Assembly (NCBI GenBank): GCA_963716725.1
Contig: CAVQUB010000032.1
Location: 192,001 to 256,000, forward strand
Length of the DNA stretch: 64,000 nt
Source: an uncultured delta proteobacterium
GTDB taxonomy: Bacteria > Myxococcota_A > Polyangia > Polyangiales > Polyangiaceae
Reading direction: 5' to 3'
Shown: piece by piece, positions 7,257 through 41,431 of the stretch
How the letters are laid out: the number at the start of each line of letters is the position of its first letter
Position numbering within the stretch: the stretch's first letter is position 1
Position numbers and translations under genes: made by a program
Notes under the pieces: model-generated
What the model was told of the DNA's origin: nothing
The model's input: only the letters and a program-made list of their open reading frames with translations
Databases searched by the model: none

Positions 7257-7470
7257 AGAGCGAGTGTACGCCAGGGCTCCACCGCCGGCGATCGTGGAGA
7301 GAGACGGCGCGTATCGGCGGAGTTCGAGCGCCCGGATCTGCTGGGGAGGTCTCGGGGTGTCGCCTCCTGGGCTGGGGTTGGACTTACTGAAGCGTGGCGC
7401 CGTCGCCGCCCGGGTTCTCGAAGACTGGTCCGCTTTGGCCCCCTAGGGGGACAATCGCGAGACGCGCATC

Positions 7471-22460: not shown

Positions 22461-22531
22461 TGCCGAGTATCGTTCCAGGAAACGGGCTCTCGGTCCAGGC
22501 GGGCAGCGGAAGGTCGGCCGCGCGGGCCCGC

Positions 22532-23725
22532 TCAGCTGACCTTCACCACCAACGCCATGGCGGTATCGCCCGCGGCGCAGCCGCTGAACAGGCCGTAGCC
22601 GCCGCCCGCGGCGACCAGCTCCTCGATCAGCTCGATGGAGAGGCGCATGCCGGTCGGGCCTTGGGGGTGTCCGTAGACCAAGGGCGATCCGAAGTTGTTG
22701 ATCGATTTCAGATCGAGGCCGAACTCTTTGCAGAAGTAGAGATCGTTCACCGCAAACGGGTTGTGCGTCTTGATGGCCTTCAGGTCGCCGATGGCGATGC
22801 CCGCCTTGGCCAGCACGGCGCGAGCGGCCGGCACGACGGCCTTGGGCATGAATCCCTTCTCGACGCGAGCCTCCGCGGCGGCGACGACGCGCACGCGCAC
22901 TTCGGGCTTGGCGGACAGCTCGCGGGCGCGGCCTTCGCTCGTGATCACCAGGCCGGCGTTGCCGTCGGCCGGATGAGTCTGCGATCCGAAGCTGACGCTG
23001 CCGCCCGGCACCACCGGCGCCAGCTTGGCGAGGCCTTCCTGGGTGGTCGGATGGATGCCCTCGTCGGCTTCGACTTTGCCGATCTCCTTCTTGCCGCGCC
23101 GAAGCGTGATCGGCGCCATGTAGCGCCTCTGAAAGGCGCGATCGTCGGCCAGGGCGGCCTGGTACTGCTGGTAGCGAAGCAGCGCGACCTCGTCTTGCTG
23201 CTCTTTGGTGAAGCCGGCTTCCTTGGCCACGTTCTCGGCGGTCTCGATCATGGCGTTCTTCGCCCACGGGTCGCGGTTGAAGGCGTCGAGCACCGCGTTC
23301 TCGGAGGCGCCCGTCCCGCCCGGGGCGGTGGGATCCGGGTAGTAGAGGTGGGGCCCGTTGCTGGTGCGATCGCAGGCCACGGCCAGCACTGCCGCGGCGT
23401 CGCCCAGCTCGACCGCGGCGGCCGCGGAGGCGATGACCCGCGCGCTGGTGGCGCAGGCTTGAGCGAAGGTCGGGCCCGTGGCGTGGCTCGCGCCGATCAG
23501 CGCCGCGAGCCAGGGCGCGCCGTAGAACGACGAGCGTTGGATCACGGTCATGCCGAGCATCACCGAGTCGAAGGCTTTGGCGTCGACCTTCTTGGCCGCG
23601 AGCACTTCGCCGGCGACCTGCGCGGCAAGCTCGAGGGAGTGCGCGTTGGCGAGGGCGCCCTGCCAGCGGCAGAACGGGGTGGACCAATACAGGCCGTAGG
23701 GGATGAAGGTCTTTTCGAAGGGCAT
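22532..23725 (-). CDS. Thiolase (acetyl-CoA C-acyltransferase)
   Basis: QACATS catalytic Cys, HPADGNAG, HNPF, GHPQGPTG, GCAAG. Confidence 0.9.
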   Translation of the reverse strand: MPFEKTFIPYGLYWSTPFCRWQGALANAHSLELAAQVAGEVLAAKKVDAKAFDSVMLGMTVIQRSSFYGAPWLAALIGASHATGPTFAQACATSARVIASAAAAVELGDAAAVLAVACDRTSNGPHLYYPDPTAPGGTGASENAVLDAFNRDPWAKNAMIETAENVAKEAGFTKEQQDEVALLRYQQYQAALADDRAFQRRYMAPITLRRGKKEIGKVEADEGIHPTTQEGLAKLAPVVPGGSVSFGSQTHPADGNAGLVITSEGRARELSAKPEVRVRVVAAAEARVEKGFMPKAVVPAARAVLAKAGIAIGDLKAIKTHNPFAVNDLYFCKEFGLDLKSINNFGSPLVYGHPQGPTGMRLSIELIEELVAAGGGYGLFSGCAAGDTAMALVVKVS

Positions 23726-23727
23726 GG

Positions 23728-26146
23728 TCAGGCCTTTGTCTTCGCTTTCTCTTTCAACGCCATCACGATCTTCTCGGGCGTGATGGGCAGATCGCGGATG
23801 CGGACGCCGATGGCGTCGTAGATGGCGTTGGCGATCGCCGGCGCCGTCGGCACGAGGCCAGGCTCACCGACGCCCTTGGCACCGAAGGGACCCGCCGGGT
23901 CGTCGGTCTCGACGAAGACGAGGTCGATCGGGAACGCCATCTCGTGCGCCGTGGGGATCTTGTAGTCGGTGAAGCTCGGGTTCAGGATCGCGCCCTTCGT
24001 GCGTCTTCACCTCCTCGTAGAGCGCGTAGCCGATGCCCTGGGCGAGCCCGCCCTGTACCTGTCCCAGGAGCGTCTGCTGGTTCAGCACGCGGCCCGACGT
24101 CGTGGGCCGAGACCGCCTTCAGGATCTTCACGTCGCCGGTCTCGTCGTCGACCTCGACCTCGACGCCCTGCACGCCGTAGGCGTAGGTCGCGCACATGTT
24201 GCCGACGCCCTTGGCCCAGTCGGGCAGCGCGCTCGGCGGCTCGTAGAACGCCTCTTCGATGATCATCTGCCCGGCCGCCGCGGAAGTGCAGCGCGCGCAG
24301 CAGCCTGCCGAGCTCGATGCGGAGCCACGGCTCGTCGGGGGCGTCCTTCGGGAACAAGAACGCCAGCCTGGAGCTCGAGGTTGTCGGCTCGGGCTGCGGC
24401 GGCAAAGTCGAAGGCCGGCGGCTGATACGACGGGTCCTTCTTCTGGTGCGCAGCGAGGCTCTTCGTCGGCCTCGGCGGCGAAGACTCCTCGGCGCCAGCG
24501 CGAAGATCTTCTTGCGCGCCTTGTCGGCGGCGCGGATGGCGGCGTTGCAGCGCCATGAAGGCGCCGCGGCTGGCGTGGGTGCCCACGTCCCAGGGGCAGG
24601 TCGCGGTGTCGGTCGGGTTGATGATGACCTTGTCGGGCAGCACGCCGAGCGCCTCGGCCACCGCCGAGGGTCAGCGCCGAGTGCAGGCCCTGGCCCATCT
24701 CGACGCCGCCGTAGGAGACGTTGACGTTGCCGAAGTCGTCGAGCTTCAGGATGACGCCGCCGCCGTCGGAGCGGTAGATGCGACCCGAGCCGCCGACGTG
24801 GATCAGCGAGGCCACGCCGACGCCGCGGCGCTTGCTCGCGCTGCTTGCCGCGCTTCTCGGTCCAGTCGAGGCTCTTCTCGGCGAACTCGAGGCACTCGCC
24901 CAGGCCGCAGGTGGTGATCTCGAGCCCCATCGGCGTCGTCTCGCCGGGCTGCGTTGCAGTTGAGCAGCCGCAGCTCGAGCGGGTCGATGCCGGCCTCCTC
25001 CGCCAGCTCGTCGAGGTGCTCTCGATGGCCCAGGTCACCTCGGGGTTGCCGTAGCCGCGCATGGCCTGGCAGTAGGTGTTGTTGGTGTAGACCAGCTGCG
25101 CGTCGAAGCAGACGTTCGGCACCCGGTAGAGCGAGGTGGCCGGGATCAGCATCACGGTCGGGTAGGTCGCGCCCCACGAGGTGTAGGCGCCGTTGTCCTG
25201 CAGCACCTCGACGCGGCGGAAGGTGAGCCGCCCGCTCGGCGTCGCAGCCCTGCACGATGCGGGTCCTCGCGCACTGGCGCGGCGAGAGGTAGGCGAACTC
25301 CTCGCTCGCGGTCGTAGAGGATCTTCACCGGGCGGCCGGTGCGGTGCGCGAGCAGGATGGCGATGTACTCGTAGGCGTGGGTGTCGAGCCCGGTGCCGAA
25401 GCCGCCGCCCAGCGTCGGCACGATCACCCGGGCGTTGCGGCCGCCGAGGCCCATGGCCTCGAGCGCGCGCATGAAGTCCGCTGGGCCAGGAACGGGATCT
25501 GCGTCTTGGCCCAGATGGTCAGGTTGCCGCGCATGTCGAACTCGGCGATGCAGCCCGCGGTGCCCATGCAGGTCTGCTGGATGAGCGGCGTCGAGAACTG
25601 CCCCTCGACGACGTACTTGCGAGGCGCGCTCGCCCCGCGTCGAGGTCGCCCGACTCGTGGTGGACCCGCACGCGGCAGCAGGTTCGTGCTGAGCGGGCCG
25701 GCCGCGCGGCGTCGCGCTCGTGCACCAGCGGCGCGCCCTCCGCCAGGGCCTCCTCGGGGGTGAAGACCGCCGGCAGCGGCTCGTACTCGACGCGGATCAG
25801 CTCGACGGCCTCGGCGGCGATGTCCGGATCGATGGCGGCGACCGCGGCGACCTCGTCGCGGAACTGCCGCACCTTGTCCCTTCTTCAGCGCGAAGTTGTC
25901 GCGCAGGAAGCCGATGCGCATCTCCGGCGTGTTGTAGGCGGTGATGACCGCGCGCACGCCCGGCAGGCGCTCGGCCCGGGAGGTGTCGATGTGCTTGATG
26001 CGCGCGTGGGCGTGCTCGCTGAACTTGATCTTGCCGTAGAGCATGCCCGGCCGGCTGAGGTCGTGGATGTAGAGCGCCCGCCCCGCGGCCTTGTCGGCGG
26101 CGTCGGGGCGCGGCGCGTCGTTGCCGATGTAGCGGAACTCACTCAT
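23728..26146 (-). CDS. Xanthine dehydrogenase-family molybdopterin-binding subunit (many frameshifts)
   Basis: Fragments in order: [62 protein letters not shown]. Confidence 0.88.
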
Positions 26147-26635
26147 GGTCGGCTCCCTTCTTGGCGCGCCGCGTCGAGGCGGCGTGCTGCACCGAGTCGA
26201 CGATCTGCACGTAGCCCGTGCAGCGGCAGAGGTTGCCGATCAGCGCGTCGCGGATCTCGTCGTCCGTGGGGCTCGGGTTCCGCTCGAGCAGCGCGTGGGC
26301 GCTCATGACCATGCCGGGCGTGCAGAAGCCGCACTGGACTGCCGCCCTTGTCGACGAAGGCCTGCTGCAGCGGCGAGAGCTCGCCGCCGGGTCCGACCAG
26401 GCCCTCGATGGTGGTGACCTTGCGGCCCTCGACCTCGAGGGCGGGAAACAGGCAGGAGATGACCGGGCGGCCGTCGACCAGCACCGTGCAGGCGCCGCAC
26501 TCGCCGTCGCCGCAGCCTTCCTTGGTGCCGGTCAGGCCCAGCGGGCCGCGCAGCACGTCGATCAGCCGCGCGGTGGGGCTCGACCGACAGGCGAGCGGGC
26601 TCGCCGTTGACCTCGAACGAGAGAGTGACGCTCAT
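26143..26635 (-). CDS. XDH-family 2x[2Fe-2S] subunit (CoxS-like), frameshifted
   Basis: [36 protein letters not shown] overlap with Mo subunit. Confidence 0.9.
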
Positions 26636-27500
26636 GAGTCTCGCTCCAGTCATCAGCGTGCGGATGGCCCGCTCGACGCAGCGCGCCCGGCCAGGTGTCG
26701 CCGATAGTCGGCGCCCGCGCGCACGTCGCTGATCGGGCGAACGTCGCGCTCGGCGGCCTCGCGCGCTCGCGCAATGGTCGCGTCGTCGAGCGTGTTGCCC
26801 GTCGAGGAGCGGTCTCGGTCTCGCGTGAGGCGCATGGGGCAGGGGCCGACCGAGCCGGCGGCGACCCGCGCCTCGGTGCAGCTGCTGCCCGTCGATCTCG
26901 AGCAGAACGGCGACGCTGGCGAGCGCGATGTCCATGCGCACGCGGCCCTTCTTCAGGAAGATCGCGCGCGCGTCTTCGGCGCGGGAGGATCGACGACCAC
27001 GGCCGAGAGCATCTCGCCGGGCGCGAGCACGCTGGCGCGCGGACCGACGAAGAAACTCGTCGAGCGGAAGCTCGCGCGTGCCCTCCGGAGCGACGATTCG
27101 CACGCGCGCCTCGTGCACCAGGAGCGGCGGGGCGAGGTCGGCGCAGGGCGAGGCGTTGCAGAGGTTGCCGCCGACGGTGGCGACGTTGCGGATCTGCACG
27201 CTGCCGAGCGTGGCAGCGGCCGCACCAGGACCGGCAGCGACTCGACCGATGCCCGAGTGAGCCTGCGAGCGTCGGCGACCGCGAGCGCCGGCGCCGATGC
27301 ACGATGGTCGGCCCCATGGCTCGACGCGCGCCAGCTCCGGGATTCGGCGCGAGCGAGATCAGAGCGCTCGGAGCGATCTTGCCCTCGCGGATCCGCACCA
27401 TGACGTCGGTGCCGCCCGCGACGAAGCGCGCTTCGGGATCCGCGGCCGCGAGCTGCCGGGCTTCTTCGAGGGTCGAGGGCCGGTGATACGAGAAAGGCAT
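26632..27500 (-). CDS. XDH-family FAD-binding subunit (CoxM-like), frameshifted
   Basis: YHRPSTLEEA, VAGGTD, QIRNVATVGGNLCNASPCAD, PISDVRAGADYR. Confidence 0.9.
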
Positions 27501-27548
27501 GGCGGGACTCACATCACGAGTTTGGGGTCTGGGTCGGGTTTCCGCATC

Positions 27549-28785
27549 TCACGCGATCACTCCTCGCTCGCGCAAGCGACGGAAACCTCTGCGGACGAGT
27601 ACCGACTTCGTCCAGCACGCCGTCGGTGTGCTCGCCGTACGCGGGTGCGAAGGCAAGCTCGCCGGCGCTGCGCCTCGAGAAAGTCGGTGCGTCACCGCCG
27701 GCGGCGGCAGGCGGACGCTGCGACCGTCGGGGGTCGTGGTCGAGAGCAGGCAGCCCTGCACGAACGTCGCAGGTCCATCACCCCCTCGATGGGCGTGATG
27801 GGAGCGTGGGGGATCTGCGCGGCGCGCGAGCGCGCGCGGCGACCTCGCTCGGCGGGGTGCTTCGCGGTGAGCGGCGCCGATGGCGGCGTGCAGCGCGGTC
27901 TTGTCCGCGGCGCCGGCCCTCGTTGGTGGCGAGCGTCCGGTCGATCGAGTGCCGCGAACAGCGGCTCCTCGGCGACCAGCCGCTGCCACTGCACGTCGCT
28001 GCCGACGGCCATGTAGATGAAGCCGTCGCGCGGTCGGGTAGGCGTTGACCGGGATGAACTGCCGGTGCTCGTTGCCCGAGCGCTGCAGCTCCTCCGGCGG
28101 GCTGCCCATGTCGAGCATGGGCAGGAAGGTGTGCAGCCAGCGAGCGGCGACCTGCGCCATCGAGACGTCGATGCGCTTGCCCGCTGCCGGTCTCGGCGCG
28201 CTCGAGCAGCGCGAGCAGCACCTGCGCGAAGGCCTCGTCGCCGGCCTTCAGGTCGATGAGGGGCGGGCCGCACTGCATCGGCGGCCCGTCGGCGGTCGCC
28301 GGTGAGGTCCATGTAGCCGCACAGCGCCTGGAGCACCGGGTCGTAGCCGGGCACGTTCGGGATGCGCGAGCCCCATGGCCGAGATGCAGCACCAGATCAG
28401 CTCGGTCGCGCGCGCGCGCAGCGTCTCGTAGTCGATGCCCAGGGCCGCGTGGCGCGCGGGCATGGTGTTGGTGCAGAACACGTCGACGTCGAAGCTCGCG
28501 GATCAGGCGGCGCGAGCAGCGCCGCCCGTCGGCGCTCCTTCAGGTTCGAGCGCGATGGCCTCCTTGCCGACGTTGGGCGCGACGAAGTAGCTGTGCCGAT
28601 CCTCGCCGGCGACCGGGCGGCCGATGTAGCGGTTCGGATCGCCCTCGGGTCTGCGGCTCCGGCGTGGGCGTCGGCTCGACGCGGATCACGCGCCAGCCCA
28701 GGTGCACGAAGCGCAGCGTCGCGTACGACATGCTGAGCGCCTGCTCGACGCTCAGGACGACGGGCGACGCGCGCTCGTCCGCCAC
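27549..28785 (-). CDS. Family III CoA-transferase (CaiB/BaiF-like), frameshifted
   Basis: [45 protein letters not shown]...PVNAYPT. Confidence 0.82.
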
Positions 28786-30409
28786 TCAGAACCTCACCGG
28801 CTCCCGGTAGGTCCCGAACACCTGCCTTGAGCGCGCCGCAGACCTCGCCGACCGTGGCGTAGGCCTCCACGGCGTCGATGACCGCGGGCATCACGTTCTG
28901 CGCCGCCCGCGGCGGCCGCGCGCACGCGCCTCGAGGGTCGCGCTCGACGCGCGGCCGCGTCGCGCTCGGCGCGCACCTGCGCCGAGGCGCGCGATCTGCT
29001 TGCTCGGCCTCCTCCTCGCGGTAGGGGTGGAACTCGACCTCGCGGCTCCTCCTCCTCCTCGACGAAGCAGTTGACGCCGACCTTCTTGACCTCGCCGCGC
29101 TGCGACGCGCCGCTCGCGCTCGTAGGCCTGGCGGTTCACCTCGGCCTGCACGCGGCCCTCGGCGACGGCCTGCACGATGCCGCCCTCGCGCGTCGAGCTC
29201 GCTCCATGATCGCGACGATGCGCTGCTCCATCTCGTTGGTCGTGCGTCTCGACGAAGTAGGAGCCGGCCAGCGGGATCGACCGTGTCGCACAGCGCCGAT
29301 CTCGTGCATCAGGATCTGCATCGTGCGCAGCGAGAGCTGCGCCGCCTGCTCGCTGGGGATGGTGTAGGCCTCGTCGTAGGAGCAGAGCGCCATCGTCTGC
29401 GTGCCGCGACGAGCGCGCTGGCCAGGGCGTAGTAGGCGCCGCGCACGATGTTGTTCTCGGGCTGCTCGATGGTGAGGCCGCCGCCGCCGCCGCCGGCGAT
29501 CATGCGCAGCTGCATCGAGCGCGGGTTCTTCGCGCCGTAGCTGCTCCTTGAGGATCTGCGCCCACAGCCGGCGCCCGGCGCGGAACTTCGCGACCTGCTC
29601 CCAGAGGTTGCCGTGGATGTCGAAGTTGAAGGAGAGCCCGCGCGCGAACGTCGTCGACGTCGAGCCCGCGCGCGAGCACGTGGTCGATGTAGGCGCAGGC
29701 GATGGCGAGGCCGTAGGCCATCTCCTGGGCCGGCGTCGCCCCGCGACTCGCGGATGTGGTAGCCGCAGACGCTGACCGGGCTGTACTTCGGCGACGTTCG
29801 CGCGCGCAGAACTCGATGGTGTCGCCGACCAGGCGCACGCGACGGCTCGACCGGGAAGATCCAGGTGCCGCGGCCGACGAACTCCTTGAGGATGTCGTTC
29901 TGGGCCGTGCCGCGCAGCGTCGCGAGGTCGAAGCCGCGCTTTCGCGCCATCGCGAAGTACATGGCCATGATCGGCGACGGCCGCGCCGTTGATCGTGAGC
30001 GAGACGGTGATCTCGTTGAGGTCGATGCCGTCGAAGGCCTCCTCCATGTCGGCGAGCGTGTCGACCGCCATGCCGACGCGCCCGACCTCGCCCTCGGCCA
30101 TGGGATCGTCGGAGTCGAGGCCGCACTGGGTCGGCAGGTCGAAGGCGACGTTGAGCCCGGTCTGGCCGTGCTCGATCAGGTAGAGGAAGCGCTCGTGGGT
30201 CTCGGCGGCCGTGCCGAAGCCCGAGTACTGGCGCATGGTCCAGGGGCGCTTGCGGTACATGAGCGGGTGGATGCCGCGGGTGAAGGGGTACTCGCCCGGC
30301 TCGCCGATCGCCTCGCGCCGCCGCTCGCTCCACGTCCTCCGGGCCGTAGACCGGCTCGACCTCGATGCCCGACTTCCCAGATCGACCGGGGGTCGCTCGT
30401 CGTGCTCAC
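28786..30409 (-). CDS. Adenosylcobalamin-dependent acyl-CoA mutase, large (substrate-binding) subunit, frameshifted
   Basis: [59 protein letters not shown]. Confidence 0.9.
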
Positions 30410-30818
30410 CGCTCCACGCGCTCCCGCGAACGCAGCTCGACGATCTCGTCGAGCCGGCGTGCCGGTCGGGAAGACGCCGCCGCGACGCCGAGCTCCTGCA
30501 AGCGCGGCGCGGTCGCGCGTCGGGATGTTGCCGCCCACGACCAGCAGCGCGTCGTCGACGCCGGCGCCGCGCAGCGCCTGCCACCACCTTCTGCGCGAGC
30601 GGCAGGTGCGCGCCCGAGAGGATCGAGAGCCCGACCACGTCGACGTCCTCCTCGCGCGCGGCCGCGCGCGATCGCCTCCGGCGACTGCCGCAGGCCCGTG
30701 TAGATGACCTCCATGCCCGCGTCCATCAGGGCGCGGCAGACGAGCTTGGCGCCGACGTCGTGGCCGTCGAGGCCGGGCTTGGCGATCAGGACGCGGATGG
30801 GCGGGTGCGTCCGGTCAT
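30406..30818 (-). CDS. Acyl-CoA mutase small (cobalamin-binding) subunit, frameshifted
   Basis: [11 protein letters not shown] (DxHxxG), [19 protein letters not shown]. Confidence 0.9.
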
Positions 30819-31955
30819 CGAGCCCCCTCGCGATGTTGACGCGCAGGATCTCGGAGGTGCCGCCGCCGATCAGCGTGAAGCGCACGTCGCGCAGGTAGCG
30901 CTCGACCGGGTACTCCGTCGCGAAGCCGTAGCTCGCCAGGACCCGCGCGGCGCGGTCGCAGACGCGGCAGCGCCGCCTCCGAGGCGAAGAGCTTGGCCAT
31001 GCTCGCCTCGCGTGTCGTTCGGGCAGCCCCTGCTCGCTGCGCCAGGCGGCCCAGTGCGGTCAGCCGGCGCGCGGCCTCGAGGTCCGTGCGCCATCTCGGC
31101 CAGGTGGGCCTGCACCGCCTGGAAGCGCGTCGATGGGCTTGCCGAACTGCTGCGCGCTCGCGCGGCGTAGGCGCAGGGCGTCCTCGTAGGCGGCGCGCGC
31201 CACGCCCAGCGCGAGCGCCGCGGTCATCGACGCGGATCTCGGCGAGGATCTCCCGCAGGTAGCTCGGTGCCCTCGCCGCGGCTCGCCGAGCAGTGCACGT
31301 GGCGGGCGACGTCGTCGAAGAGACCTCGCGAGGTGAGCGACGCGCGGACGCCCATCTTCTCGATGGCGCGGCCGACCTCGAGGCCCGTCGGCGCCCCGCT
31401 CGACCAGGAAGACGCTCGAGCGTCCTTCGTCGCCCGTGCGCGCGAAGACCGTGAAGAAGTCGGCGACCGGCGCCGAGGTGATCCAGGTCTTCGGCCCGTG
31501 ATGCAGCCAGCGCCCGTCCTGCTCCTCGGCGCGCGTGGCGATCGCGAAGCAGGTCGCTGCCCGCGTCCGGCTCGGTCATGCAGATCGTGCCGATCGCCTC
31601 GCCGCGCGAGCGCCGGGCGCGAGCAGCCGCTCGCGCACCTCGCCCGCGGCGAAGCGGTGCACGAAGTACGTGCCCATCAGCGACTGCATGGTGCAGGCGG
31701 CGGCGACCGACGAGGCTGCCCCAGGCCAGCTCCTCGACGGCGAGCAGGTAGCGAGAGCACGTCGGCGCCGCTGCCCTCGGGCTCCGGGTAGCGCATGCCG
31801 AAGAAGCCGAGCTCGCCGGCGCTTGCGCGAAGAGCTCGCGCGGGAACCGCGGGTTCTCGTCGAGCTCGCGCGCGCGCGGCCGGATCTCGCGCTCCGCGAA
31901 GTCGCGGAAGGTCGTCGCGGATCGCCTGCTGCTCGTCGGTCAGGGCGAAGTCCAT
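30815..31955 (-). CDS. Acyl-CoA dehydrogenase, frameshifted
   Basis: [42 protein letters not shown]. Confidence 0.88.
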
Positions 31956-31958
31956 CGC

Positions 31959-33726
31959 TCAGGCCGCTCCGCCGCGCAGGCGCGCGGTCTCCGCCGCGTC
32001 GAGCTCGAAGCGTCTCGGGTCGACGCGCGACGCCGTAGACGCTCGCGCGCCGCCTCGACGCGAGACGATCCCGTCGCGCACCTCGCGCGCACCTTCTCGG
32101 CCGGCCGCTCGTGCGGGTCGCCGTAGCCGCCGCCGCCGCCGGCCTCCTGCACGTAGAGCGTGCCCGGCCGGGACGCCCTGCGACGAGGTCCTTGCTCGTC
32201 GGCGCGGTAGCGCGTGCCGTCCGGGTAGTCGCAGCTCGATCTTGTTGAGCGTGCCGTCGCCGCCGCCGAAGAGCCCGAAGGCCGGCTCGACGTCGCCGTC
32301 GCCGAAGGTGACGATCTGCGTGTCGTCGCCGCCGACGACGGTAGCGCGTCTCGACGCCGAGCCCGCCGCGGTGCTTGCCCGGCGCCCGCCGAGTCGCGGC
32401 AGGTACTCGTGCGTCGAGCAGGCGGTGCGGCGTCTGCTGCTCGAACATCTCGTAGTCCTGATCGAGCACGCCGCCCGAGGCGTCGATCATGCCGATGTGG
32501 TCGTAGCCGTCGCAGTCGCGCAGTCGCCCCCGAGCCGCCCTTGAGCCCCATGAAGAGGATGTCGACGTAGGTGTCGTCGCTTGCGCGGATCCCGGCCCGT
32601 CGACAGCGAGCAGAGCAGCTGGTTCCAGCCCGCGGTCACGCGCTCCGGGATCGACCGGCGCGAGCGCGCGGATGATGGCGTCGGCGTTCGGCGGGCAGAG
32701 GTGGTTGCCGAAGGTGGTCGCCGCCGGGTAGGCGGCGTTCAGGATCGTGCCCTCGGGGATGACGATCTCGATCGGCTGCGACCATCCCGTGGTTGTGCGG
32801 GATGTCGCGGGTTGACCATCTGCAGGAAGGTGAGGAGCGTCGCCGACGCGCTCGAGGTGTAGGTGCCGTTGACGAAGCCCGTTGGTCTGCGCGTCGGTGT
32901 CCGAGTAGTCGAAGCGTGATGTGCTCGTCCTCGACCGTGATCGTGACGCGGATCGTGTACGTCGAGCCCGGGTGTCTTGCCGTCGAAGTAGACCGTGGCT
33001 CTCGCCGCGGTAGACCCCGTTCGGGATGGCGCGGATCTCCGCCTCCATCATCTTGCGGGTCGACTCGAAGAGGGCCTGCTTGTGCGCCTCGAAGCGCTCG
33101 AGCCCGTACTTCTCGATCGAGCGCCGCGAGCCGCCGCTCGCCGACCGTGCAGCTGCCGATCTCGGCGCGCATGTCCTCCTGGACGATGGGCAGGCGGATG
33201 TTGGCGAAGATGAGGTCCCAGACGTCCTGGCGCAGCTTGCCGCGCTCGAAGACCTTCACCGCCGGGATGCGCAGCGCCTCCTGCCAGACCTCGGTGGCGT
33301 TCGGGTTGTAGCCGCCGCGCACGGCGCCGCCGATGTCGGCCTGGTGGCCCTTGGCGGCCGACCAGCCGACCAGCGTGTCGCCGACGAAGATGGGCTTGAA
33401 GGCCGCGACGTCGTTGTTCTGGTTGCCGAGCGAGAAGACGTCGTTGTGGAAGAAGACGTCGCCCGGGATAGACGTCGCCCGCGAACTTCTCGGCGATGTG
33501 CTGGCAGACCGGGCTCAGCGAGAAGCTGAGGATCGGCAGGTTCTCGGTCTGCTCGAGCATCCGCCCCTCGGCGTCGTAGAGGCCGGTGACGAAGTCGTGC
33601 GCCTCGCACAGGATCGGCGAGCGCGTGCGTCTTCTCCATGCTGATGCTCATCTCGTCGGTGATCGCCTTGAGCGCCCGGCCGATGATGGAGACGAGGACC
33701 TTGTCGATCGTCGATGCTGCGCTCAT
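31959..33726 (-). CDS. Hydantoinase B/oxoprolinase-family subunit, frameshifted
   Basis: AITDEM, GGYNPNATEVWQEALRIP, DYSDTD, PEGTILNAAYPAAT, GGGGGYGDP. Confidence 0.88.
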
Positions 33727-35869
33727 GTCGCGCCTCCCGTCGCGTCACGACGACAGCGTGCCGTAGCTCGTCGACCCGCGCCGTCGTAGCGCGGCGCTGA
33801 CGAAGATCGTCGTGTCGGTCCGCTCGATCAGCGCCGGGCCCGGGATCGCGTTGCCGGCCCGCAGCGCGTGGCCGTCGTAGACCGGGCACCTCCTCGAAGC
33901 GCGTCGCGCTCGGGCACGAAGGCGCGCCGCTGCGCCCTTGCGCGCGCGCTCGCGGCTCGGCGCCGCCCGCGCGCGAGCGTCGGCAGCGCCGGCTTCTCGA
34001 TCGCGGCCGACCGACCGCACGCGGACGTTGATCAGCTCGAGCGTCGGTGCCCTCGGCCGCGAGGTCGTAGCCGTAGAGCCGGTCGTGCTCGCGCGTGGAA
34101 GGCGCGCGGCGATCGCGGCGAGGTCGCCGCGCTCGATCGCGCTCGCGCGGCACCGGCACGCGTGACCTCGTGGTACTGCTTCACGTAGCGCAGGTCGAGG
34201 CGCGACCTCGTGGTCGCATGCGCTCGGCGGGCACGCCCTCGCGCGTCGCAGCTGCGCGTCGCCCTCGCGCGACCATCTCGTCGACGAGCGCGCGCGAGCC
34301 GCGCCGGGTCGAGGTCGCCGAAGCGGCGCGATGTAGGAGCGCACGAAGTCGTGCTGCAGGTCGCTCAGCAGCATGCCGGCGGCGCAGAGCACCGAGGCCG
34401 TCGGCGGGACGAGCAGCGACGGGGATCTCGAGCTCGCTGCGCGATCATGCAGGCGTGCAGCGCGCCCGCGCCGCCGGCCACGACCATCGGGAACTCGCGC
34501 GGGTCGAGGCCGCGCTTGACGGTGATCTCGCGCACGCCGTGCGCCATGTTGGCGTTGATCACGCGGTACATGCCCGCCGCCGCCGCCTCGACGTCGAGGC
34601 CCGAGCGGCTCGGCGACGTGCGTCTCGATGGCCGCGCGCGCGCGCGTCGGCGTCGAGCGCGCAGCTCGCCGCCGGCGAAGTAGCGCCGGGTCGAGGTAGC
34701 CGAGCACGAGGTTGGCGTCGGTGCAGGTCGGCCGCTCGCCGCCGCGGCCGTAGCAGGCCGGGCCCGGGATCGCGCCGGCCGACTGCGGGCCCATGCGCAG
34801 CAGCCCGCCCTCGTCGATCCAGCCGATGCTGCCGCCGCCCGCGCCGATCGTCGCGATGTCGAGCATCGGCAGCGCGATGCGCAGCCGGTCGATCTCGCCC
34901 TCGGCTTGCCAGCGCCGCCTGCGCCGCCGCGCACCAGCGAGGCGTCGAAGCTCGTGCCGCCCATGTCGACGACGATGCAGTCGTCGTCGCCGTGCGGCCC
35001 GGCGTACGCGACGGCCGCGCGCGGGCCCGCCGGCCGGGCCGCTGAGCAGAGCGTGCGTCGCCGGGCGCCGCGCGGTCGACCTCGGGCAGCGCGACGCCGC
35101 CGTTCGACTGCATGATGAGCAGCACGCCGCCGAAGCCCGGCCTCGGCGAGCTGCGCGGTCAGGCTGCGCGAGGTAGTCGCGCGAGCACCGGGCCGACGTA
35201 GGCGTTCGAGCACCGTCGTCGAGACGCGGTTGTAGAAGCGGACCGTCGGCAGCACCTCGCGACGAGACGCTCAGGAAGGCGTCCGGCAGCTCGCCGCGCA
35301 CGAGCTCGGCCGCCGCGCGCTCGTGCGCGGGGTTGGCGAAGGCGTTCATGAAGCAGATCGGCGACGGCCTCGACGCCCTCCGCGCGGAAGCAGCGCCGCG
35401 GCCTCGCGCACGTCGTCGAGCGTCGAGCGGCTCGAGCTCGGCGCCCCGCGTAGTCGAGGCGCCCGCGCACCGGCCGCCGCAGGTAGCGCGGCACGAGCGG
35501 CACGACGTTCTGGAAGCGGTTGTCGTACTGCTCCTCGCGGATGCCCGCGCCGCATCTCGAGCGCGTCGCGCACGCCCGTCGGTGGTGAGCGAGCCCGGTC
35601 TTGGCGCCGCGGCGCGTCAGCGTCGGCGTTCGTCGTGACGGTCGTGCCGTGCACGATGCGTGGTCGAGCCGCGCGCGAGCTCGGCGCTGCGACAGGCTCG
35701 AGCGCCTTGGCGACGGCGCCGAGCCCGTCGAGCACGCCGATGCACGGATCCTCGGGCGTCGACAGCACCTTGAAGCTCTGCACCTCGCCCGCGCTGGACC
35801 ACAGGAAGAGATCCGTGAAGGTGCCGCCGACGTCGATGCCGATCTTGTAGGTTTCGTGCGGTGCGTCAT
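33723..35869 (-). CDS. Hydantoinase A/oxoprolinase-family ATP-binding subunit, frameshifted
   Basis: [54 protein letters not shown]. Confidence 0.9.
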
Positions 35870-36501
35870 TGAACCGTCGCCTCTCTGGCGCTCGGGTGGG
35901 CTCGGCGGCGAACGCGTCGCGACCGAGGAGGAACGCCTTGCGGTTGAGCGTGGGCGAACTTCGTCCGCAGCGCTCGGCGATGGCTTCGAGCAGGGCGCCT
36001 TCGCCGACCGGCAAGAGCCCGAGTCCCGCTCGCAGCACCGAGCATCAGCACGTTGAGCGTGCGCGTCTCGCCGACCGCGCCGACGAGCGCCGGCGCGTCG
36101 AGCACGTGACACCTGACCTGCGACGCCTTGCAGCGTGCGCGACGATCGCGCTTCGGGTCCGGGGATGTCGCGTGTTCTCGAGGACGGCCTGGAATGGCAG
36201 CATGACGTGGCGGTTGGTCACCACCCGGGTGCGCCGGTCCCATCTCCGGGACGCGCGCGCAGCGCCTCGAGCGGCTCGAACGCAACCACCACGTCGACCT
36301 CGGGCCCCGCCGTGTGGGAGCTCTCGGCGCCGCCGAAGATCGCGGTGCAACGCACGCTGCCGCCGCGCTGGCTCATGCCGTGGAGCTGCCCGACGACCAC
36401 GGGCTTGCCCTCGGCGTGGGCCGCCATGCGCCGAGAATCTGCGCCGCGGCGAGCACGCCCTGCCCGCCGACGCCGACCAGCATGACCTGAAAGCGGGTCA
36501 C
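35866..36501 (-). CDS. iorB: Indolepyruvate:ferredoxin oxidoreductase beta subunit, frameshifted
   Basis: LVGVGGQGVL, HGMSQRGGSV, AFEPLEALR, LNVLMLGA, LNRKAF; GTGA and ATGA overlaps at both ends. Confidence 0.85.
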
Positions 36502-39500
36502 GGACACGAAGTCCCCTTCACCGTCGAGAGCGCCGGTTCGAGCATACGTCCGCGCAAACGCCGCAGCCGATGCACCACACGGGATCGATCACGACGTGCT
36601 CGCGGGTCGGGTCCATCACGATGGCCGGGCAGCCGAGGGCCTCGATGCAGGCGCGGCAGTTGCCGCACAGACCGCACTGCAGGCAGCGACGCGCTTCGGC
36701 ACGAGCGTCGGCAGCGGATAGCCCCTGCACGACCTCGTCCATGCTGCGAACCGCTCGCTCGCGGGCGAGCTCCTTCGGCGTGAGCCGGGGGGTCGGCGGC
36801 GCCTTGGCCGTCACCAGCGGGCGTTGCTTCGGCAGGGACGGCGGCGGACGACGATCGGCTGCGGTCGAACCGCGCAGCTCGCTGTCGATGCCCCACGCGG
36901 CGCGCAAGCCCCACGCGATGGCGCCCGTCACAGTGCGATCGCCCGCGACCAGATCGCCGCCCGCAAACACGCCCGCGCGCGAGGTGCGCCCCGTGAGCGG
37001 ATGCGCTCTGACGAGCCCGGCCTCGTCGACTTCGAGCCCCGTCGCGGCCAGCACTCTCGCATCCGGCTCCTGGCCGATGGCAACGATGACCAGATCACAG
37101 GCGAGCCGGAGCTCGCTGCCGTCCGCGAGGCCGGTGACGATCAGTGCGCCGTCGTCGAAGCGAAGGGGACGCACGCCGGTGCGAAGCGTGATGCCTTCGT
37201 GCTCGGCGGCGGTGATCTCGTCGCGCAGCGCCGGCATTGCGTTCAGCTCTTCGAGGCACGCGATGGTGACGCCTGTTGCGCCTCGACGCAGCGCGGTGCG
37301 CGCCGCGTCGACTGCGGCGTTGCCGCCGCCGATCACGACGACCTGTCGGCCCGCAGGCGCATCGGCGTCGAGGCGAATGGCGCGCAGATAACCCAGGGCA
37401 TCGATGCTGCGCGGGGCAGCGTCGCGATCGCTGCCCGGCAGCGCCAGGGTCTTGCTGCGATGGGCGCCGATGGCCAGAAACACGGCTCGGAAGTCCGCGC
37501 TCGAGATCGTCCAGGGAGATCTCGCGACCGAGGCGTTTTCCACCTTCGAAGCGGACTCCGAGGCGGAGCACGCGCTCGATGTCACGTGCGGACTGTGCCG
37601 CGGGCAGGCGGTACTCGGGGATGCCGTGGGTCAGGAGGCCGCCCGGCCGCGCCTCGGCGTCGAAGAGCGTGACGCTGTAGCCGCGCACCGCGAGCTCGTG
37701 GGCGGCGGACAGGCCCGCGACGCCCGGCGCCGATGATGGCGACCGCTGTTCCATGCGCCGGCTCCCTCGGCGTCTCGAGAAGGTCCGGGCGTTCGCGCTC
37801 GGCCCAGTCCACGACGAAGCGCTTCAGATCGTTGATCGCGACGGGCTCGTCGAGGCCGCGGCGGACGCAGCCGTCTTCGCAGGGTCGGTCGCAGACGCGA
37901 CACACCGAGCTCGGGCAGCGGCGTGCGCGCCATCACGTGCTGCAAGGCCTCGGCGTTTTCGCCAGCCGCGATGTGGCCCGCGTAGCCCTGAATGCACAGC
38001 GACAGCGGGCAGCGCTCGGCGCAAGGCGCGACGGATGACTCGAGATCGAGCGCGCCGCGCTGGCTGGCCACGCGCGCGAGGTTTCGCTCGAAGCCTTCGG
38101 TGATGGGCACGTCGCAGCGCAGGTGGTGCTCGGCGCGACCGCAGGTACGGCAGCGATCGGCGTCGGCAACGTAGGCCGGCGGCCGAGCGGCGGAGCCGGT
38201 GCGATCGCGACTCGGCCACCGGACAGGCGCGCCGCACCACGATCACGCTGGTGCCCTGGGCGCCGCGGGCGCGCCGAAAGGCCGCGCTCGAGGCCTCGAG
38301 CTGGTAGGGGTCGATGGTCTCGACGTGGCGGGCGCCGAGGGCGCGCGCCACGTCCTCGATGCGCTGCTCGCGGGTCGGGGCTCTCCTGGAAGCCCGTCAT
38401 CGCGGTGATCTCGTTGTCGAGCACGACCGCGACGACGTTGGCGTTCTCCTTGACCGCGTCGAGCAGCGCCGGCATGCCGGCGTGGAAGAAGGTCGAGTCG
38501 CCCATGAAGCCCACGGTGCGCTTGCCGGTGACCTTGGCGACGCCGGCGGCCAGAGTGAAGCCCGCGCCCATGCAGAGCAGCGCGTCGGCGGTGCTGAGCG
38601 GCGGCGCGTAGCCCAGCGTGTAGCAGCCGATGTCGTTGATGTAGAGCTGGTCTTCGTCGAACGCCGCGCGCGCCGCGACGAAGGCTGCGCGGTGCGGACA
38701 GCCTGGGCAGAGCGATGGCGCACGCACGGGGACCACCGGGCAGGGCTGGCTTCTTGCGTGGAAGCTCGCCGATGCCGGAAGCACCTCGAAGAGCGCGCGC
38801 TGGATGACCTCGGCGCTCGTACTCGAACTCCTCGGGCAGGTGCCCGGAGCGCTTGCCGAGGATCTTCGATGAGAGGCCGATGGCGCGCGCTGAGGGCGAG
38901 GAGCGCGTTCTCGAGGAACGGCGACAGCTCCTCGACGACCAGGACACGCTCGACTCCGCGCAGCGCGGTCGACGAGCTCGCGCTTCGGGCAGCGGATGCA
39001 CGGTGCCGAGCCGCCAGAGCGGCGACTCGGTCAGTCGCGCCGGCCAGCTCCAGCAGATCCGCGACTGGTCGCGGCCGGCGCGCCGGACGCGAGCACGACG
39101 TCAGGGCTCTGGCCCTCGGATGCGGAAGAAGCCCGACTCCGCCATCCACGCGCGGGCGATCTCGATGCGCTCCTTGAGCTCGAGGCGCATGCGCCGCGCG
39201 TTGGCCGGAACGGGCACGTAGCCGCGCCGGGTCGCGCACGAAGCCCGCCGACCTGACGCGGCGCGGAGCCGGTCCCAGCTCCACCGGGCCGCGCGTGTGC
39301 GCCACTCGCGTGGTGGTGCGAATCAGGACGGGCAAGCGACTCGCTTCGCACAGCTCGAAGGCCGCGCGGGTCATCGCATGGGCTTCGGCGGGCGTGCTCG
39401 GATCGAGGATCGGCAGGTGCAGCATCGGACCGAGGTGGCGCTGGTCGGCCTCGTTGGGGCTGGTGTGGCACGACGGATCGCCCGCGCTGATGATGACCAT

Positions 39501-39867
39501 GCCCGCCTCGACGCCGACGTACGGAATGGTCGAGATGCGGGTCACCGGCCACCATCAGGCCCAGGTGCTTCATCGCGGTCAGCGAGCGAGCACCGGCCAG
39601 GGCGGCGGCGAAGGCGAGCTCGAGGGCGATCTTCTCGTTGACCGAGTACTCGAAGGCGATCTCGCGCGCTTTCGCGATGCGCGCGAAGCCATCGGTGATC
39701 TCCGACGACGGCGTGCCGGGATAGCCCGCCACGAACACCACGCCGGCTTCTAGTGCGCCGCGCACGATGGCGTCGTTGCCGAGCAGGTGCACGACTCCAT
39801 CGGCACGGTCGTCCAGGAGTGGATCGCTTCGACCGGAGCTGCGAGCAACTGTGCTGTCTCGGTCCAC
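36498..39867 (-). CDS. iorA: IorA (indolepyruvate oxidoreductase alpha) with internal GltD-like FAD/NAD(P)/Fe-S module, frameshifted
   Basis: GYPGTPSSE, NEKIALE, MKHLG, LCPGCPHR, DIGCYTL, GDSTFFH, TAMTG; then APCAERCP, CRVCDRPCEDGC, IIGAG, GGGNAAVD, FAGGD; ends CLQCGLCGNCRAC...GCPAI...CIGCGVCADVC. Confidence 0.8.
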
Positions 39868-39901
39868 TCGACAGTCGTTCCACGCATCCGGGGGGACCTA
39901 C

Positions 39902-41431
39902 ATGACCCCGGTCATGTCGAGATTGACGCGGTGCATTGCGCCCGGGGTGGTAGCGTCTCTCTGGGTCGACGTGGCTTCGGTTTACCTGGGCGGGGTGCTG
40001 ACTGCTTGGTGCGTGACGCAACTGGCGTTGGGCGTGTTCTTCGCGCTCGTGCACCTCGTCGCTCGGCGTGAGCGCGACTTGCTCATCTACGGGGCCATGT
40101 GCTTGGCGCTGGCGTACCACAGCGCGAGCAGCGCCCGCGCGCACTTCGCCCTGACGGTCGCCGAGCGCTTCGACGCGGTCACCGGCGTGGTGCAGGCGGC
40201 GCTGATCACGGCCGCGTTGAACCTCCACTTCGTCGCGGCCTTCGTCGGGTGGCCGGGCCGTCGGCGCTGGCTCGTTGGCCTCTATGCCGCGGCGATTGGC
40301 TTCGAGGTCGCGGTCGCGCTCGGCCATTGGTGGCACCTCGACACCGCGGTCTTGTCCGAGGCTCGGCTCTTCGGATGGGAGTTCAGCCACTGGCGCGCCG
40401 AGCCGACCCCAGTGGCGAAGCTCGGCTTCGCCTGGGTGGGGATCCAGCTCGTGATTGCGCAAGCGGGGCTCTGTCGCGCCGCGATGAGCGGTCAACGCGA
40501 AGCGTACTTCGCCTTCGCAGGGGGCCTGACGGTCGTCGCGGCGGCGACGAATGACGTGCTGCTCAGCACCGGCGTGGTGAAGCACTCCCTCTACTTCGCG
40601 CCCCATGCGTTCATGCTGTACGCCTTCAGCGTCGCCAGCACCGTCGTGTTCCGCTATCGGAGGACCATCACCGAGCTGACCCGGACAGAGCGTGAGCTGC
40701 GCGCGGCGACCGACCAGTTGTCGGTGTCGCACCAGGAGCTCCGGGAGGTCCAAGACGAGCTCACCAAGAAAGAACAGCTCGCGGCGGTGGGCGAGCTCGC
40801 CGCGGCCATCGCCCACGAGGTGCGCAACCCCTTGGCGGTCATCAGCAACGCCGTCGCCGGGCTGAGGCGCCCCGCTGCCGTGGCCGCCGACCGAGAGGTG
40901 CTGCTCGACATCGTGAGCGAAGAGGCCAATCGACTGAACCATCTGGTGACCGACCTGCTCAGATTTGCCCGCCCGAGCTCCCTGAAGCGCTCGCGCATCG
41001 ATCTGGTCGAGCTGATCGAGCACACTCAGGTGCCGCTCGGTGAGCAGCACTCACTCGAAGTGCGCGCCGACGACAGCGCGCGCTTCGTCGAGGCCGATCA
41101 GAATCTCCTGCGGGCGGCCTTCGACAACGTGATCCTGAACGCAGCGCAGGCCACGCCGAAGGGTGGGACCATCGACGTCGAGGTCGAAGATGTCCAAGCG
41201 AATCGCGCGCCGGGCGTCTTGGTCACGCTCAGAGACTCCGGCGCCGGCATGGACGCCGCGACGGTGGCCCGGGCGCTCGACCCCTTCTTCACGACGCGCC
41301 CGAGCGGCACCGGTCTCGGTTTGCCCATCGTGCAGCGCGTCGTCCAGGCCCACGGCGGCCACTTGGAGCTCGAGAGCGAGAATGGCCGTGGCACGACGGT
41401 TCGCATCTGGTTGCCACGCACCGCGCCGTGA
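39902..41431 (+). CDS. Membrane sensor histidine kinase (multi-TM N-terminus)
   Basis: About 7 TM segments; H-box IAHEVRNPL; N-box NAAQA; DSGAGM, PFFTT, GTGLGL; start approximate. Confidence 0.92.
   Translation: MTPVMSRLTRCIAPGVVASLWVDVASVYLGGVLTAWCVTQLALGVFFALVHLVARRERDLLIYGAMCLALAYHSASSARAHFALTVAERFDAVTGVVQAALITAALNLHFVAAFVGWPGRRRWLVGLYAAAIGFEVAVALGHWWHLDTAVLSEARLFGWEFSHWRAEPTPVAKLGFAWVGIQLVIAQAGLCRAAMSGQREAYFAFAGGLTVVAAATNDVLLSTGVVKHSLYFAPHAFMLYAFSVASTVVFRYRRTITELTRTERELRAATDQLSVSHQELREVQDELTKKEQLAAVGELAAAIAHEVRNPLAVISNAVAGLRRPAAVAADREVLLDIVSEEANRLNHLVTDLLRFARPSSLKRSRIDLVELIEHTQVPLGEQHSLEVRADDSARFVEADQNLLRAAFDNVILNAAQATPKGGTIDVEVEDVQANRAPGVLVTLRDSGAGMDAATVARALDPFFTTRPSGTGLGLPIVQRVVQAHGGHLELESENGRGTTVRIWLPRTAP

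Follow-up and report, generated by a model that had tools for sequence, protein, structure and literature searches.

An iaa-type operon headed by indolepyruvate oxidoreductase-like genes, conserved in a myxobacterial genus and garbled by unpolished consensus in one assembly

The analysed window is a stretch of 64,000 nucleotides, G000:C32:192001-256000, where G000 denotes the source assembly (7.9 Mb, 35 contigs, 68% guanine plus cytosine (GC)) of an uncultured member of the Polyangiaceae. It contains twelve genes related to the iaa genes of Aromatoleum, whose products degrade indoleacetate (IAA) anaerobically. Comparison of the sequences with those of related genomes indicates that this twelve-gene operon is real and conserved in a myxobacterial genus. 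The locus is probably a functional operon in the living organism, garbled here by 16 kb of unpolished consensus, and would encode an iaa-type, oxygen-independent route from the indole side chain to 2-aminobenzoyl-CoA; the substrates, electron path and physiology set out below are predictions. The pathway appears to be the known iaa pathway, and the new part would be the entry, by an indolepyruvate oxidoreductase (IOR) instead of a CoA ligase.

The twelve genes lie in the same orientation on the minus strand, at 22532-39867 of the window (Table 1). A Pfam scan of 82 stop-to-stop minus-strand fragments (22.3-40.2 kb) returned, downward from 39.9 to 22.5 kb, POR_N, TPP_enzyme_C, Fer4_20, Pyr_redox_2, POR, Hydant_A_N, Hydantoinase_A and Hydantoinase_B, followed by Acyl-CoA_dh N/M/C, B12-binding, MM_CoA_mutase and CoA_transf_3, and finally by FAD_binding_5, CO_deh_flav_C, Fer2, Fer2_2, Ald_Xan_dh_C, MoCoBD_1/2 and Thiolase_N/C. 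This is the gene order given by an earlier annotation made from the DNA letters (the sequence-only reading), and the tight packing which it described is found as well: neighbouring genes meet in ATGA, TGATG or ATG..TGA overlaps or stand a few bases apart, in the window and in two congeners alike. As that reading had hinted, each of the eleven genes other than the thiolase is split over several frames in G000.

The 17-kb block recurs at 79-85% nucleotide identity in five of the six congeners (G001-G005) and in G022, a member of another family of the same order; no long match to it was found in the sixth congener, G006, a genome 73% complete. In G002, assembled in five contigs, all cluster genes are intact and give full-length domain matches. 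The gene arrangement is far beyond chance. G001 and G002 share the gene order of the right flank (histidine kinase, desaturase, amylase), an argument against a chimera. The assignment to a probable myxobacterium agrees with near-identical proteins labelled "Myxococcales bacterium" and "Polyangiaceae bacterium" at NCBI, and the contrary possibility named by the sequence-only reading, that the locus belongs to another organism, is spoken against by the conserved genomic context. The GC content is 0.69-0.74 in the cluster and 0.64-0.69 in the flanks (window 22001-40000), with about 67-68% for the genome; together with a patchy distribution over 14 of 254 genera (see below), these values suggest horizontal acquisition of the cluster. 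Between the CoA-transferase and the following FAD-subunit gene, G002 carries an open reading frame (ORF) of 209 amino acids (L009:12008-12634) with no Pfam or NCBIfam match, which is not present in G000 or G003; a similar spacer of about 0.6-0.8 kb stands at this junction in G001 and G005, judging from match coordinates.

Passages of PMC8360864 describe the activation of indoleacetate to its CoA ester by IaaB and, after ring opening, the action of the IaaL CoA-transferase, the IaaGH mutase and IaaF, a decarboxylating benzylmalonyl-CoA dehydrogenase. In all IaaF orthologues, according to the same passages, GGG replaces YEG and the genes are located in iaa operons; the electron acceptor of IaaF is left unnamed there even for Aromatoleum. 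Passages of PMC8453981 name IaaCE as the hydantoinase-like hydrolase, and it is listed as a homologue in Table 1 of that paper. The passages of PMC8360864 also mention sulfate reducers and Ferroglobus placidus as bearers of predicted iaa operons; the latter host is an archaeon, whereas the present one is a myxobacterium.

The comparator was the locus of Aromatoleum buckelii U120, anchored by the published iaaF primer (PMC8360864). Besides A. buckelii U120, the primer search matched the starts of 28 unrelated acyl-CoA dehydrogenases (ACADs), A. aromaticum EbN1 not being among them, and the U120 locus was therefore used. This locus reads, in order: GntR regulator, thiolase, AMP-binding ligase, hydantoinase-type subunits HydA and HydB, ACAD, B12-binding small mutase subunit, mutase, the FAD, FeS and Mo subunits of a xanthine dehydrogenase (XDH)-family enzyme, CoA-transferase, and periplasmic binding protein; a hydratase/dehydrogenase fusion lies divergently beside it. 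The proteins of G002 were searched against the 50-kb A. buckelii region, and the ACAD against the whole genome. The identities amount to 57% for HydA, 67% for HydB, 59% for ACAD, 47% for the B12 small subunit, 63% for the mutase, 42% for FAD, 46% for FeS, 42% for Mo, 57% for the CoA-transferase and 52% for the thiolase. In the whole A. buckelii genome, the primer-anchored gene is the first match of the G002 ACAD, with 429 bits vs 243 for the next.

Reverse searches into the whole of G002, chosen because the frameshifts of G000 distort matches, were made with IaaF, the Mo subunit, the mutase, HydB and the CoA-transferase; HydA, the B12 small subunit, FAD, FeS and the thiolase were compared in the forward direction only. 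All five found their best match in the cluster: IaaF with 429 bits vs 268 for the next gene, the mutase with 738 bits vs 494.5 for the nearest paralogue, HydB with 887.9 bits vs 132.5, the Mo subunit with 435+155 bits vs 422 for a paralogue, and the CoA-transferase as a single match of 480.5 bits. The competing Mo paralogue belongs to an intact second XDH-family set (FAD, Mo, FeS) at G000:C21:359023-369089, the subunits of which are 27-45% identical to those of the A. buckelii iaa locus. Both G002 and A. buckelii IaaF carry the motif LIGGGTSEI, in which GGG replaces YEG; seven homologues from other phyla share it, and it can be read in the window's own frame too. The core order HydA-HydB-ACAD-B12 small subunit-mutase is identical in G002 and A. 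buckelii. The iaa-type enzyme set proposed by the sequence-only reading thus finds support in identities of 42-67%, the conserved core order, the five reverse searches and the GGG motif. Judged by these best hits, the proteins do not group with 5-oxoprolinase, canonical methylmalonyl-CoA mutase or the other XDH paralogue, and the contrary outcome named in that reading did not arise.

The names offered by NCBIfam for the G002 proteins (caprolactamase, xanthine dehydrogenase, 4-hydroxybenzoyl-CoA reductase, mutase domains) are all below equivalog cut-offs. The best model of HydA is caprolactamase alpha, CapA (694.8 bits, cut-off 1000), and HydB matches CapB with 365 bits; the Mo subunit is nearest to 4-hydroxybenzoyl-CoA reductase alpha (524 bits, cut-off 995), and the B12 small subunit matches TIGR00640 with 127.3 bits. 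CapAB and the hydantoinase/oxoprolinase lactamases are the best curated models, yet the Aromatoleum Iaa proteins are much closer, at 57-69%. With the iaa cluster of A. aromaticum EbN1 and A. evansii KB740, as represented by A. buckelii, the operon has in common IaaC/E, IaaF, IaaG/H, the XDH trio, IaaL and the thiolase; gene order suggests the letters I, J and K for the XDH genes and A for the thiolase. Unlike the A. buckelii cluster, it has no IaaB ligase, IaaM binding protein or GntR/TetR regulators and carries IorA-GltD and IorB at its 5' end. The CoA-transferase here precedes the XDH genes (there it follows), and the thiolase is last (there first).

The two genes at the 5' end resemble IorA and IorB. 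IOR models are the top NCBIfam matches of both G002 proteins: IorA reaches 617.8 bits with TIGR03336 IOR_alpha (cut-off 650.9), and IorB reaches 148.5 with IOR_beta, TIGR03334 (cut-off 205.8), 155 vs 238 with the PRK06853 variants and 106.8 bits with the POR domain. The POR_N, TPP_enzyme_C and POR-gamma domains are shared with known IorAB (TIGR03336/TIGR03334), whereas the alpha subunit has here a C-terminal NfnB/GltD extension of about 500 amino acids. Against the PDB, the C-terminal 538 residues of IorA match Nfn/GltD chains with E-values from 1e-74 to 1e-41; the nearest solved relatives are 4ylf_B, 5jca_L and 2vdc_G, as well as modules fused to Mo enzymes in 9bov_A and 8oh5_C. With the N-terminal modules of NfnB, GltD and dihydropyrimidine dehydrogenase (including 1h7x_A), the extension has Fer4_20 and Pyr_redox_2 in common (E 1e-74 to 1e-32). 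Unlike NfnB/GltD chains, however, the module is fused here to a 2-oxoacid oxidoreductase, from which electrons would flow to NAD(P)+. The intact fusion has about 1090 amino acids, and modules of this type are predicted to bind two [4Fe-4S] clusters, FAD and NAD(P)H. The fusion is widespread in metagenome-assembled genomes (MAGs): of 8000 candidates scored, 4189 proteins reach E<=1e-50, and database names for it are only "FAD-dependent oxidoreductase" or "IOR alpha".

No IaaB-like ligase is present in or near the cluster, and A. buckelii IaaB, searched against the whole of G000, has a best match of 33% identity; several AMP-binding ligases of G000 are 28-33% identical to it. The A. buckelii IaaM query was without a match in G000 at E<=1e-6. 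No regulator of the GntR or TetR kind stands at the cluster; there is instead a histidine kinase in the flank, divergently oriented, which is a possible regulator. Tryptophan is reportedly led into an iaa-like route through IOR in F. placidus, as Aklujkar et al. are said to have proposed in 2014. No description of IOR genes inside iaa clusters, or of an IorA-GltD fusion in an iaa context, was found in the literature searched, a scope outside which the iaa papers of 2012 and 2016 and the F. placidus study lay. At a distance of about 10 kb from its iaa locus, A. buckelii carries an IOR-family gene of the fused type (POR + DUF6537) beside a tripartite ATP-independent periplasmic (TRAP) transporter (L043:3295-7071 and 7098-9961); Aromatoleum, judging from A. 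buckelii, keeps an IOR-like enzyme near, not inside, its iaa cluster.

The distribution of the cluster was followed in an even sample of the phylum, 401 Myxococcota genomes of 254 genera, with a HydB orthologue accepted at E<=1e-100. Such an orthologue occurs in 15 of the 401 genomes and 14 of the 254 genera; G000 itself scores nothing because of its frameshifts. IOR-like genes stand in the cluster at 12 of 13 Myxococcota loci, the 13 being drawn from the 15 positive genomes and from at least nine families, and the thirteenth locus is a 12-kb contig with a different gene order. Neither the ligase nor IaaM has a match in these 13 loci (E<=1e-10, coverage >=0.4). When metagenomes were scanned with an IaaF alignment, 577 relatives came to light. 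The best 80 loci were retained; being those closest to the query, they give proportions which are not natural frequencies. In 17 of them the sequence extends 2.5 kb or more upstream of HydA, and among these, IOR-type loci number 4 and ligase-type loci 9, with 4 neither and 0 both. The ACADs of the IOR-type loci are 66-91% identical to that of G002 and at most 59% to that of A. buckelii, those of the ligase-type the reverse, and the two types differ also in the placement of the CoA-transferase and thiolase. Several ACAD and IorA-GltD matches from Vicinamibacterales, Krumholzibacteriia and other MAGs agree in the length of the longest contig; together with protein names, this suggests an IOR linkage beyond Myxococcota, in Acidobacteriota, Planctomycetota and Krumholzibacteriia MAGs.

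The frameshifts are, on the comparative evidence, to be regarded as assembly errors and not as gene decay. In a three-way alignment with G002 and G003, the indels private to G000 comprise 168 one-base and 19 two-base insertions and 7 one-base deletions, the insertions being scattered from about 23.9 to 39.5 kb. In the pairwise alignment with G002 (23726-39900), G000 has 169 one-base and 21 two-base extra stretches and lacks 9 and 1, respectively; neither the thiolase (1.2 kb) nor the right flank (5.15 kb) has any one- or two-base indel. The inserted bases mirror the base composition, and 28 of the 168 one-base insertions have an identical neighbour, so that they are not homopolymer slips. When the twelve genes are projected onto G002 coordinates, 2 stops remain in about 5,640 codons, and the amino acid identity is 70-88%. 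Short contigs of relatives from four public runs, mostly 85-95% alike and uninformative on coverage or on the strain's own reads, lack one base ("left out 1") at all 12 sites listed of 80; 11 of the 12 lie within 4 bases of an insertion site, where chance would place an estimated 15% or so per site, given 92 sites in 6 kb.

Across the genome, reading frame was followed as phase changes of the GC content at third codon positions (GC3) per 4-kb bin (n=1952 bins), since the alternative metric, cover by long high-GC3 ORFs, was confounded by local GC content. The four bins of the cluster show 20, 19, 20 and 13 changes, the genome median being 4 and the 99th percentile 14. Error patches recur, with at least 10 changes in 96 of the 1952 bins. 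A second large patch, C3:8001-24000, whose counterpart in G002 was identified by Pfam as rpoC, rpoB and tuf, has 99 one-base and 14 two-base extra stretches vs 16 and 5 missing relative to G002, with 27 insertions inside rpoC, 45 in rpoB and 5 in tuf. Essential genes cannot be pseudogenes, and the insertion signature therefore belongs to the assembly. G000 is a mosaic of clean and unpolished stretches, the latter breaking essential genes, so that its gene calls, its 84% completeness and any pseudogenes called in it cannot be relied on. A link of error patches to high GC, as by short-read polishing dropout, found no support (Spearman rho 0.14; bins of at least 0.71 GC are not clearly worse). 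A control patch, C32:143001-153000, was uninformative, being occupied by a multi-copy element resembling an insertion sequence, with 2.66 kb alignable and one-base differences of 5 extra vs 2 missing. Within it, a stretch of about 0.7 kb (C32:148575-149331) has at least 10 copies at 75-78% identity across G002 and is probably an insertion-sequence family.

The route proposed for the operon would begin with the conversion of tryptophan to indolepyruvate by an unlinked aminotransferase elsewhere in the genome. IorAB would then form indoleacetyl-CoA by oxidative decarboxylation, in place of the IaaB ligase step, with the fused NfnB/GltD-like module relaying the electrons to NAD(P)+. The XDH-family Mo enzyme may hydroxylate C2 with oxygen from water, after which HydAB would spend ATP on opening the lactam, with (2-aminophenyl)succinyl-CoA as the product. 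The family III CoA-transferase would move the CoA, the B12 mutase would form (2-aminobenzyl)malonyl-CoA, and the IaaF-type dehydrogenase would yield 2-aminocinnamoyl-CoA by oxidation and decarboxylation. An unlinked housekeeping hydratase and dehydrogenase, followed by the thiolase of the cluster, could release 2-aminobenzoyl-CoA and acetyl-CoA. The former would enter the Bcr/Dch/Had/Oah pathway without oxygen and the Box pathway with oxygen.

Genes for both of these outlets are present in the genus. Among seven genus genomes, BcrB is over the cut-off in all seven and Oah in six; the bcr/oah copies of G000 (C5:774214-779210) are split by frameshifts. In G002, the region C2:418000-427000 reads had-oah-dch-TetR-bcrC-bcrB-bcrA-bcrD. 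Over the cut-offs are BcrC (435.6 vs 421), BcrB (706.5 vs 486.6), Had (409.8 vs 338.7) and Oah (514.6 vs 464.5), and the best matches of BcrA (527.7 vs 578), BcrD (301 vs 312.9) and Dch (207.5 vs 292.5) are below them; from its sequence, a predicted class I (Bcr-type) benzoyl-CoA reductase set, four Bcr proteins with Dch, Had and Oah, is present in this genome. NarG is over the cut-off and full length in four of the seven genomes, with five fragments in G000, and a clade-II-type NosZ (TIGR04246) is over the cut-off and full length in six, the G000 copy being truncated with one TGA. BoxB, of the aerobic benzoyl-CoA route, is over the cut-off in six of seven and intact in G000 (732.7 bits), which suggests a facultative organism and not a strict anaerobe. 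The genus thus looks like a facultative reducer of nitrate and N2O with anaerobic and aerobic benzoyl-CoA routes. Aromatoleum is similarly facultative and has both routes. The benzoyl-CoA reductase and anaerobic respiration genes for which the sequence-only reading proposed a search do exist in the genus, and its view of anaerobic aromatic catabolism stands as regards Bcr, Oah, NarG and NosZ, with the amendment that BoxB indicates an aerobic route too.

Several points weigh against the proposed route. The IOR scores lie under the equivalog cut-offs, and indolepyruvate is accordingly a putative 2-oxoacid substrate. The comparator was A. buckelii U120, whereas the pathway was studied in EbN1. 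No aminotransferase, transporter, enoyl-CoA hydratase, 3-hydroxyacyl-CoA dehydrogenase or electron transfer flavoprotein gene lies within the cluster, as annotated in G002 and the window, and the best G000 matches of the hydratase/dehydrogenase fusion of A. buckelii are just 28-32% identical. Reads of the source organism were not found among public sequencing runs (best share of words 0.16). The ratio of non-synonymous to synonymous differences from G002 after projection is 0.7-1.5 for G000 and 0.34-0.77 for G003, and could reflect relaxed selection. This raised ratio tracks insertion density, is absent in the thiolase and is present in rpoB and tuf too; it is attributed to substitution errors and local misalignment.

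The last two points, together with the loss of frame in eleven of twelve genes and the near coincidence of the frameshift patch with the operon, would also suit a genuine decaying pseudogene array with biological frameshifts. This is very improbable, as the insertions outnumber deletions about 19:1, are random in base and fall outside homopolymers, while bacterial mutation is biased toward deletions. The same signature marks essential rpoB, rpoC and tuf, the projected codons hold very few stops, and fragmentation in G000 extends to NarG, NosZ, BcrB and Oah; as a guess, the near coincidence of patch and operon may come from a single long read bridging a gap. A chimera of binning or assembly, bringing the cluster from another organism, would account for a cluster GC of 70-74% against about 67-68% in the flanks and genome, and for the change of consensus quality at the cluster borders. 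Its chance is slighter still, since G001 and G002 have the cluster and right flank in one piece and in syntenic order, the cluster occurs in five of six congeners, and no break separates the intact thiolase from the clean flank.

As to function, an accidental neighbourhood of unrelated enzymes (5-oxoprolinase/caprolactamase, methylmalonyl-CoA mutase, xanthine dehydrogenase) is hardly credible. It could draw on the best NCBIfam names, which are caprolactamase, methylmalonyl-CoA mutase domains, xanthine dehydrogenase and 4-hydroxybenzoyl-CoA reductase, but these matches all fall short of equivalog level, the reciprocal best hits fall on the iaa locus, well ahead of the next matches, and the gene order is kept across phyla together with the GGG motif. 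An iaa-like cluster in which IorAB is not the tryptophan entry is unlikely, though the least so of these alternatives: the enzyme might accept other arylpyruvates or carboxylate arylacetyl-CoA reductively in anabolism, or free IAA or an N-heterocyclic acid might be activated by an unlinked ligase or by the CoA-transferase of the cluster. In its favour are the sub-threshold IOR scores, the AMP-binding ligases of G000 noted above, the anabolic use of IOR with an arylacetate ligase in methanogens, as passages of PMC6737245 describe it, and the intermolecular CoA transfer with succinyl-CoA of which IaaL is also capable, according to passages of PMC8360864. Against it, IorAB is translationally coupled to HydA, stands in 12 of 13 Myxococcota clusters just where the ligase is missing, and is mutually exclusive with the ligase among the 13 classed metagenome loci. 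Since 2-oxoacids are absent from the intermediates of the iaa route, entry is the only obvious role for an IOR, and IorAB as the entry step is accordingly the role suggested here.

A wider proposal, put forward tentatively and with a little less than even confidence, is that IOR-type iaa clusters form a separate, widespread lineage. They would encode a self-contained, oxygen-independent conversion of tryptophan to 2-aminobenzoyl-CoA which bypasses free auxin and employs a new kind of 2-oxoacid oxidoreductase, with direct reduction of NAD(P)+ by way of the fused NfnB/GltD module; the route would be coupled in sediment Polyangiaceae-type Myxococcota to denitrification and ATP-dependent benzoyl-CoA reduction. 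If this is true, the "auxin degradation" of Aromatoleum would be a ligase-bearing offshoot of a more general anaerobic tryptophan pathway. The anaerobic fates of tryptophan beyond the production of indole, skatole and IAA are poorly mapped, and a compact operon that converts indolepyruvate directly to 2-aminobenzoyl-CoA would offer a route of mineralisation to nitrate-reducing communities. As for the IorA-NfnB/GltD fusion, it is a candidate ferredoxin-independent aryl-2-oxoacid:NAD(P)+ oxidoreductase.

Table 1. Features of the iaa-type locus and related genes of G000 (window positions unless a contig is given; TPP, thiamine pyrophosphate)
Feature	Position	Strand	Basis and remarks
Low-quality consensus patch	23800..39600		private insertions of one or two bases, about 190 in all, at a density of 3-20 per kb
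IorA-like TPP subunit fused to NfnB/GltD-like module	36501..39867	-	POR_N, TPP_enzyme_C, Fer4_20, Pyr_redox_2 fragments; frameshifted
IorB-like subunit, POR gamma-type domain	35872..36504	-	POR fragment; GTGA overlap with IorA; frameshifted
Hydantoinase A-type, IaaC orthologue (predicted large subunit of ATP-dependent lactam hydrolase)	33728..35870	-	Pfam, 57% to A. buckelii; frameshifted
Hydantoinase B-type, IaaE orthologue	31958..33730	-	Pfam, 67% to A. buckelii; frameshifted
IaaF-type decarboxylating (2-aminobenzyl)malonyl-CoA dehydrogenase homologue, GGG for YEG	30813..31957	-	reciprocal best hit, motif; frameshifted
B12-binding small mutase subunit, IaaG-like	30403..30815	-	B12-binding fragment, 47% to A. 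buckelii; frameshifted
Acyl-CoA mutase large subunit, IaaH-like	28789..30400	-	Pfam, 63% to A. buckelii; frameshifted
Family III CoA-transferase, IaaL-like phenylsuccinyl-CoA transferase	27552..28788	-	Pfam, 57% to A. buckelii; frameshifted
XDH-family FAD subunit	26635..27502	-	FAD_binding_5 + CO_deh_flav_C, 42% to A. buckelii; frameshifted
XDH-family 2x[2Fe-2S] subunit	26142..26638	-	Fer2 + Fer2_2, 46% to A. buckelii; frameshifted
XDH-family molybdopterin subunit, proposed indoleacetyl-CoA C2 hydroxylase	23731..26150	-	Ald_Xan_dh_C + MoCoBD_1/2; frameshifted
Thiolase, 397 amino acids	22532..23725	-	sole intact ORF of the cluster in G000; 52-55% to A. buckelii iaa-locus thiolase
Histidine kinase, divergent, beside the cluster	39725..41428	+	HisKA + HATPase_c in window and G002; flank synteny
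NarG	C5:593894-597498
NosZ	C6:98922-100196
BoxB	C32:3053-4417

Elsewhere in the window, the match of an ORF at 56852-57640 to the Aconitase profile is confined to the final 129 positions of that profile. The bins at 56-64 kb show 7-8 phase changes, and a milder error stretch or a truncated gene is possible around this ORF.

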